Assembly (NCBI GenBank): GCA_038058445.1
Contig: JBBUBB010000022.1
Location: forward strand, 1 to 27,954
DNA length: 27,954 nt
Reading direction: 5' to 3'
From: Patescibacteria group bacterium
GTDB taxonomy: Bacteria > Patescibacteriota > Minisyncoccia > Phycocordibacterales > UBA9973
The translations under genes and the position numbers were made by a program. This document shows positions 8,073 through 8,155 of this stretch, one piece after another (the stretch's first letter is position 1; every line of letters starts with the position of its first letter). Under the pieces are notes generated by a model. It was not told the origin of the DNA. It saw only the letters and a program-made list of their open reading frames with translations, and made no database searches.

Positions 8073-8155
8073 ACAAAAACACTAATTTCGTAAAGGTGTG
8101 TTTCGAGGCTGACTGAGCCGAGAATCAGGTTGTTTTTCAGCAGAAAAACACCGAC
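8073..8155 (+). repeat. Three-hairpin element, copy A (relative of the element downstream of tRNA-Gly)
   Basis: Shares ACAAAAACACT, stem-GACTG-stem-GAG, TTTTTCAnCAGAAAAA and CCGAC, in the same order, with 27637-27763 on the minus strand. Confidence 0.7.

Follow-up and report, generated by a model that had tools for sequence, protein, structure and literature searches.

A family of structured palindromic repeats with a conserved three-way-junction cap in one order of Parcubacteria

Introduction

What are the two similar stretches of hairpin-forming DNA that lie 19.5 kb apart, on opposite strands, in one contig of a Patescibacteria group bacterium? Such bacteria have genomes of 0.5-1 Mb that had been regarded as nearly free of mobile DNA. 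The window, i.e., the whole stretch of 27,954 nucleotides that was analysed, is contig C22 of a 578-kb (0.58-Mb) genome assembled in 100 contigs (hereafter G000). An initial annotation described four blocks that occur in the same order at 8073-8155 on the plus strand (copy A) and at 27637-27763 on the minus strand (copy B), and took them for a dispersed, structured RNA or hairpin mobile element outside any named family. All four blocks are where the annotation placed them, but its anatomy of the element was misread. The two copies belong to a real, large and uncatalogued family of structured palindromic repeats in one Parcubacteria order. We describe the architecture of the two copies, their relatives, and the ways in which such an element might spread or serve its host.

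Results

Copy A is a 123-nt element on the plus strand (8065-8187), flanked by two minus-strand genes, one for a surface protein (8197-9888) and one for a PilB-type ATPase (6174-7922). Folded as a single strand, the region 8060-8195 of the plus strand forms one long hairpin with a minimum free energy (MFE) of -40.4 kcal/mol (z = -4.6), in which a 27-bp outer stem, P1, leads to a three-way-junction cap that bears two hairpins, P2 and P3. The initial annotation paired ACAAAAACACT (8073-8083) with GGTGTGTTT as a first hairpin, but in the fold ACAAAAACACT is part of the 5' arm of P1 (8071-8100), and this arm pairs with a 3' arm (8154-8181) lying outside the interval that had been annotated. The full element also takes in a 5' foot, AAGCGAG (8065-8071), and a 3' foot, GAGCGA (8182-8187), which in the fold form GC pairs flanked by tandem G.A mismatches. 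P2 (8102-8124) consists of P2a (TTC/GAA), an internal loop (GA/GA) and P2b (GGCT/AGCC), closed by the invariant loop GACTG (8111-8115), and P3 (8128-8152) pairs GGT-(T)-GTTTTTC with GAAAAAC-ACC under the loop AGCA (8139-8142); both hairpins and their loops are supported by covariation as well as by the fold. The motif GGTGTG is part of the junction. A consensus scan called no canonical terminator in 7923-8196, and copy A does not qualify as an intrinsic terminator by this measure. A second hairpin family adjoins copy A at 7967-8047 on the minus strand, where a long stem of variable sequence is capped by GAGGACTCTGCGTAGGCATCCGCAGAG; the same cap sits on different stems upstream of pilB in three other genomes, G043, G020 (twice) and G042 (loci L170-L172).

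Copy B carries P2 and P3 as in copy A, on a short P1. Its cap occupies 27632-27714 of the minus strand, where P1 is formed by AGGGAG (27714-27709) paired to CTCCCT (27637-27632), P2b reads GCGC/GCGC around the loop GACTG (27696-27684), and P3 is CGAGATTTTTC-ATCA-GAAAAATACTCG (27671-27645). The surroundings of this cap differ from those of copy A. A tRNA-Gly(UCC) gene, called by ARAGORN and Rfam, lies at 27764-27835 on the same strand, and between it and the cap is a terminator-like 20-bp hairpin (27720-27764), an inverted repeat that is 95% complementary and is also seen in the fold. The first of the four blocks in copy B belongs to this separate hairpin and is analogous rather than homologous to its counterpart in copy A. 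Similarly, the CCGAC block of copy B is the start of a second tRNA-Gly tail (27622-27640) that is 100% identical to 27764-27782, the 19 nt of the tRNA gene from the middle of the T-loop to the 3' end. This second tail supplies the 3' arm of P1 and extends past it. A bounding direct repeat of the 3' part of the tRNA is typical of tRNA-integrated islands, and of the two copies it was found for copy B only; the 123-bp insert contains neither an integrase nor any other open reading frame.

Caps near-identical to that of copy B occur behind tRNA-Gly in G043, G021 and G011, and the spacer hairpin of copy B has its homologue, in species without the module, in the plain terminator behind tRNA-Gly. The order of parts is constant at tRNA-Leu, tRNA-Gly, tRNA-Glu and tRNA-Thr of the genome G094 and at tRNA-Gly in the genus of the window, namely the tRNA, the spacer hairpin, the reverse complement of the start of the tail, AAAGCCGGAG, the cap, GTGAC and the second tail. 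At these four tRNA genes of G094 the second tail equals the first over 18-24 nt from the middle of the T-loop; the second tails of tRNA-Ser and tRNA-Arg are degenerate, at about 9 nt. The tRNA-Gly site holds the copy B cap in three species (G000, G021 and G011) and other caps in at least seven, and it is empty in about ten species, in which the plain terminator follows the tRNA. The tRNA-Gly(UCC) loci (L347-L376) are a hot spot, with at least three clearly different gene-less caps between the tail repeats. The stem of the copy B subfamily reproduces the T-loop and T-stem of the adjacent tRNA and would have been copied from them, and the tRNA tails on both sides of copy B point to integration at tRNA genes, either site-specific or driven by homology. 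The tRNA-linked module thus resembles the products of tRNA-gene integration, although the apparently integrated unit would be a gene-less one of 123 bp. We also rejected the idea that copies A and B are the ends of a composite mobile unit of 19.5 kb, as the genes in between are housekeeping genes (nusA, tig, clpP and rny).

How many relatives do the two copies have? A motif pattern search of the whole G000 assembly turned up nine other contigs with the P2 and P3 motifs, and a covariance model was then built from nine full copies with a hand-drawn structure. The model matches 12 places in G000, nine of them with 62-91 bits, one weakly and two cut by contig ends; a third contig begins inside a copy. 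Copies A and B match this single model with 90.2 and 62.8 bits. The contigs C15 (end), C85 (end) and C51 (start) break inside identical copies, and the repeat family is thus one cause of the fragmented assembly.

The possibility that the two stretches are alike by chance in AT-rich DNA deserves next to no credence. It can draw on the fact that the first and fourth blocks are generic, that ACAAAAACACT, an A-tract with the start of a stem, has 6 occurrences genome-wide, most of them within terminator-like hairpins, and that the CCGAC of copy B is derived from the tRNA. Shuffled sequences, however, give an expectation of 0.00 for the 16-mer of P3, TTTTTCANCAGAAAAA, and of 0.04 for the 11-mer ACAAAAACACT, each of which is present twice in the window, and the bit scores of both copies under one model, together with hundreds of further members that show covariation, already refute chance.

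Among 45 copies from 30 genomes, 84.9% of cells pair, compared with 58.6 +/- 0.9% in shuffled alignments and 37-55% with slid partners, and both-side changes are seen in 25 of the 26 pairs. P2b pairs in 98.9% of cells, with both-side changes in all four of its pairs, and the P3 helix pairs in 86.7%, with double changes in 9 of 10 pairs. The exchange of GGCT/AGCC for GCGC/GCGC under a fixed GACTG loop, which had first drawn attention to the locus, holds across 45-85 copies. The AG before P2b, the loop GACTG and the GA after P2b are invariant, and the C-ANCA-G of P3 is nearly so; no consistent complementarity was found for a kissing interaction between the GACUG and ANCA loops. Every member of the family has a stem of the P1 type (8-42 bp), with sequences that are unrelated between members, and element length is about 120-140 nt. 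Among the G000 copies, mean identity is 66% in the caps and 33% in the outer arms. The foot motif, 5' RAGCGAR ... YGAGCGAY 3', was found again in many copies of other genomes.

The initial annotation took the changed stem as a sign of selection on structure. Pairing is indeed preserved, but the pattern in the genome G012 suggests another source for many of the changes. Copies in that genome that are otherwise 90-96% identical differ almost exclusively in the P2b and P3b stems, and the differences are nearly always compensated, while the 24-bp P1 remains almost unchanged between near-identical copies. Moreover, the same few versions of P2b (GGCT, GGAC, GCGC and GCCT) reappear across subfamilies and genomes. 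This pattern suggests gene conversion or hairpin-templated change between caps rather than many independent selected events, and such exchange between copies may partly explain why caps are alike while stems differ. As a general warning, compensatory changes in repeats can come from inter-copy exchange and are by themselves no proof of RNA function. Pairing is also maintained at old orthologous copies. In the adk-map spacer, copies from four species with diverged stems have double changes in 18 of 43 pairs.

The search with the covariance model found many further members in the order as well as in the genome. In an order-wide screen, the model matched 75 of 101 genomes and 34 of 51 genera, with 1-40 copies per positive genome of 0.5-1 Mb, and G094, searched alone, has 52. 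Copy number spans 0-40 within a single genus, and the genus of the window includes nine genomes without a copy, three of which are 96-97% complete. In an even sample of other genomes of the phylum, 2 of 150 matched at E <= 1e-6. Confirmed members are carried by Nomurabacteria, Taylorbacteria, Zambryskibacteria, Yanofskybacteria, Wildermuthbacteria, Uhrbacteria and Paceibacterota; pattern matches in Atopobium and other lineages proved not to be family members.

The element also stayed outside any named family. A scan of the whole window against Rfam 15 at the gathering threshold returned two tRNAs alone, and for 8040-8210 at E <= 10 the best match was Proteo-phage-1, a partial 3' tail with 15 bits against the 42 needed (E = 1.5). 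The Rfam families that the element does not belong to include hammerhead, twister, pistol, hatchet, HEARO and Y RNA-like. Inspection of both strands by eye, alongside Rfam, revealed nothing to support the cap being a hammerhead or another ribozyme. Descent from a phage or virus was set aside, as pattern matches in IMG/VR were not members and blastn against a phage collection yielded no family match. A literature search found no paper on such elements.

Is the family mobile, as the initial annotation supposed? Comparison with 25 orthologous pilB loci in the genus, whose PilB proteins are 72-89% identical, showed none with the element; in most of them the upstream stop codon is followed by a plain bidirectional terminator and a TACAAT promoter. 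Empty sites at the strain level were sought in metagenomes and this approach was abandoned, the best relatives being 68% identical in PilB. Within G000, copy A and the copy on contig C73 have stem and foot in common (outer arms 75% identical, against a mean of 33%), and three copies have another stem in common. The 40 copies of G012 include subfamilies of whole hairpins that are 90-96% identical with their stems included, and 11 head-to-head (-,+) pairs (loci L379-L407), each joining two different subfamilies 125-175 nt apart, e.g., C1:172289-172506. In the recA-efp locus of a relative (L031), the pair brackets the promoter. No target duplication of the kind expected for a classical DDE-type MITE flanks recent copies, and with outer arms averaging 33% identity there are no family-wide conserved terminal inverted repeats of the MITE kind. 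The family places copies of the entire hairpin at new intergenic positions, facing either way and making no target duplication. We also considered insertion of the cap into the loop of a pre-existing terminator, which is attractive for the copies at tRNA T-arms; this was rejected, as recent copies have the whole stem and foot in common.

Insertions are intergenic, usually at most about 30 nt behind a stop codon or a short way ahead of a -35 box, next to a 5' flank that tends to be pyrimidine-rich and a 3' flank that tends to be A-rich. The model match usually starts 10-60 nt after the upstream stop codon, and in G094 many copies are 15-20 nt upstream of a TTGACN box; one copy of that genome is inside a long open reading frame. 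Some positions recur across species. The copy in the adk-map spacer of four species is always antisense to the operon. Further recurrent sites are the region upstream of tsf and the recA-efp interval, and at the latter the orientation varies by species. At locus L281 (G033:C13:20500-25000), copies with equal scores stand on either side of prfA, and both run antisense to the rpmE-prfA operon. Replacement of a gene's terminator by the element fits the pilB locus and is unsupported genome-wide, since 6 of 14 gene ends with an element in G094 have a canonical terminator, compared with 133 of 633 others. A 30-nt G+C-rich palindrome is a further repeat of the window, present twice in inverted orientation (651-680 and 12670-12699; 97% complementary), with one copy inside the phosphoglycerate kinase reading frame; GGCGGATG-type hairpins like it act as terminators in relatives (L179 and L180).

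Copies pooled over genomes lie in 23 sense, 26 antisense, 15 divergent and 17 convergent contexts; between co-directional genes of G094 there are 19 sense and 4 antisense copies. The GC skew of the 680-kb contig C7 of G094 places the origin near 195 kb and the terminus near 548 kb, and its full-length copies are 22 co-leading and 21 anti-leading. There is thus no lagging-strand orientation bias of the IS200/IS605 kind on this contig.

A related question is whether one strand of the element is the one that folds. Counts of G-U pairs in MFE folds (81 versus 6) were discarded as biased, since folding of the opposite strand gives as many, and a strand-neutral alignment of the two stem arms was used as the strand test. 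Over the whole stem, 46 wobble pairs are on the element strand and 11 on the other (p = 3e-6), and the copies antisense to their flanking genes have 13 versus 2; the mismatches are 51 A.G/G.A and 2 C.T. In the unique outer stems, the excess of A.G/G.A mismatches persists (27 versus 2 C.T; p = 1.6e-6), but wobble pairs show no strand bias (13 versus 11). The purine-purine excess arises because the GAGCGA foot stands on both arms. This foot self-pairs as GA/AG-GC-GA/AG on the element strand only, which implies that one strand folds, either as RNA or as single-stranded DNA. Since the outer stems show no wobble bias, the strand argument depends on the G.A foot together with conserved positions further in, where the bias is possibly inherited. 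The special strand does not coincide with the mRNA strand in every case, and the element leaves no space for its own promoter; these observations favour a single-stranded DNA form but are not proof of it.

If the repeats move, which enzyme moves them? Y1/RAYT-like genes (PF01797) are present in 52 of the 101 genomes of the order, often several per genome, with 41 of 75 element-positive and 11 of 26 element-negative genomes having them, and none was detected in G012, the genome with 40 copies and recent bursts. G000 has two such genes of about 230 aa, at C89:1722-2420 and at about 5080-5790 of C86 (minus strand), each bracketed by its own small unrelated hairpin (ACTTGGCGACCGAACCGCCAAGT and GCAAGGACTGTCCTTGC, respectively). 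RAYT was therefore rejected as the mobiliser, since its occurrence does not correlate with the family and the genes have hairpins of their own. TnpB was not detected in any of five high-copy genomes, and no autonomous partner with TnpA (Y1) or TnpB was found beside any copy, although a divergent enzyme could escape such a search. Reverse transcriptase genes (about 340-370 aa) are found in four of the five high-copy genomes and are missing from G094; we suspect that they belong to diversity-generating retroelements. Each of the five high-copy genomes checked has 1-3 tyrosine recombinases, and G000 has two; to our knowledge, such enzymes are present in any bacterium. No mobilising enzyme can be named from the genes examined.

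Discussion

What, then, are copies A and B? The explanation that we favour, with a confidence only slightly better than even, is that they belong to a non-autonomous, gene-less palindromic repeat family of the REP/IS200-MITE kind that is characteristic of one order of Parcubacteria. The architecture of this family, with a long outer stem, a GAGCGA foot on both arms, and a conserved three-way-junction cap with the loops GACTG and ANCA, is established by the alignments and folds. The form that moves or is recognised would be one single strand folded into a Y shape, more likely DNA than RNA, and the cap and foot may be what a trans-acting enzyme recognises, much as in REP/RAYT or IS200/IS605-type elements. 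One offshoot, represented by copy B, would target tRNA genes. A role as host RNA is possible at some loci, and the orthologous copies with conserved orientation (adk-map, the tsf leader and the efp leader) fit a host function as well. A more far-reaching proposal, which we put forward tentatively and judge unlikely when taken as a whole, is that the cap and GAGCGA foot define a new class of gene-less mobile element that moves as a single strand folded into a Y-shaped hairpin or a dumbbell, by means of an enzyme not known as a transposase, such as a housekeeping tyrosine recombinase or nuclease, with one subfamily acquiring tRNA T-loops as new targets by taking a copy of the target into its stem; alternatively, the cap would be a new small catalytic or protein-binding RNA.

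It is also conceivable, though in our judgement doubtful, that the element is foremost a host-serving structured RNA module at gene boundaries, with a cap that binds a conserved protein or acts in RNA processing, stability or termination, and that it multiplied because it is useful. The fold is RNA-like in its three-way junction, in the tandem G.A loops of P2 and the foot, and in its invariant loops, and orthologous copies retain the cap and its pairing across species. Some copies, in sense orientation, follow a TACAAT promoter and precede the start of efp or tsf, sense copies prevail between the co-directional genes of G094 (19 versus 4), and in G000 the element is the only candidate in the gap between the surface-protein gene and pilB, where no canonical terminator is present. 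Pooled orientations are nevertheless nearly even (23 sense and 26 antisense), and copy A and the copies on C6, C73 and C51 are antisense to both neighbours and have neither the space for a promoter of their own nor a conserved one. In G094, a canonical terminator is no less frequent at gene ends with an element than at others (6/14 versus 133/633), and genomes of the same genus that are 96-97% complete and lack a copy indicate that the element is dispensable. Recent bursts of identical copies, moreover, are typical of selfish spread.

Less probable still is that the family is a miniature integrative module, in which the outer stem of the folded strand offers a duplex mimic of a chromosomal site (e.g., the T-arm of a tRNA) and a host tyrosine recombinase integrates the module, as happens at the attP of CTX phage and at integron attC sites. 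On this view copy A would be derived from such a module and have lost the match between its stem and a tRNA. Exact repeats of 19-24 nt do bound copy B and its relatives; the repeats start in the middle of the T-loop, the classic crossover region of tRNA-targeting integrases, and the 5' arm of these copies is the reverse complement of the start of the tail. The tRNA-Gly site, with at least three cap types and more sequence variants, and empty in about ten species, behaves as such a target might, and tyrosine recombinases are at hand in each high-copy genome checked (1-3) and in G000 (two). The presence of universal enzymes says little, however, and direct repeats are lacking beside general copies such as copy A. 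Which side of the site is the element is ambiguous as well, because the native-type terminator follows the first tail in G000 and the second tail in G020, and neither an excised form nor an att-like conserved core was observed.

The family matters beyond the two copies of the window. At up to about 50 copies at gene boundaries, it makes up about 1% of the most heavily loaded genomes. It can serve as a marker for one order, it is a source of assembly breaks, and it offers a clean system in which to study the movement of gene-less hairpins where no known transposase correlates with them.

Comparison with characterized systems places the family among several kinds of small repeats. The copy B module recalls integron attC sites, the attP of CTX phage and tRNA islands, in that its repeats start in the T-loop and its stem reproduces the target as a duplex; it differs in that it is a 123-bp module that codes for nothing and has no integrase, and copy A and most members are without such repeats. 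Like the Rickettsia palindromic elements and the Correia elements of Neisseria, the members are structured repeats of 100-150 nt in small genomes that are long retained near or inside genes, but those elements are conserved over their whole length, whereas here the cap and foot alone are conserved. In Correia elements, the terminal inverted repeats are fixed and a TA is duplicated. The miniatures derived from IS200/IS605 elements (PATE-type) are similarly hairpin-based, make no target duplication, have one active strand and lie beside a short pyrimidine-rich flank. IS608-type elements show a lagging-strand orientation bias; the present family differs in having no replication bias (22 versus 21 in G094), and neither an autonomous partner nor a link to TnpA/TnpB was found for it. 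A REP or REPIN sequence is an imperfect palindrome of about 20-40 nt with a conserved 5' GTAG head, whereas the present element is 3-4 times longer, has a three-way-junction cap, ends in GAGCGA rather than GTAG, and has stems that vary between subfamilies, and no cognate RAYT was found flanked by or co-occurring with the repeats. The likeness to the REP/BIME/REPIN sequences (RAYT, Y1 HUH) is nonetheless extensive, as both are extragenic palindromes in tens of copies per genome that sit at gene ends in either orientation, form inverted doublets (11 head-to-head in G012), carry no genes, insert without target duplication and fold in a strand-specific manner.
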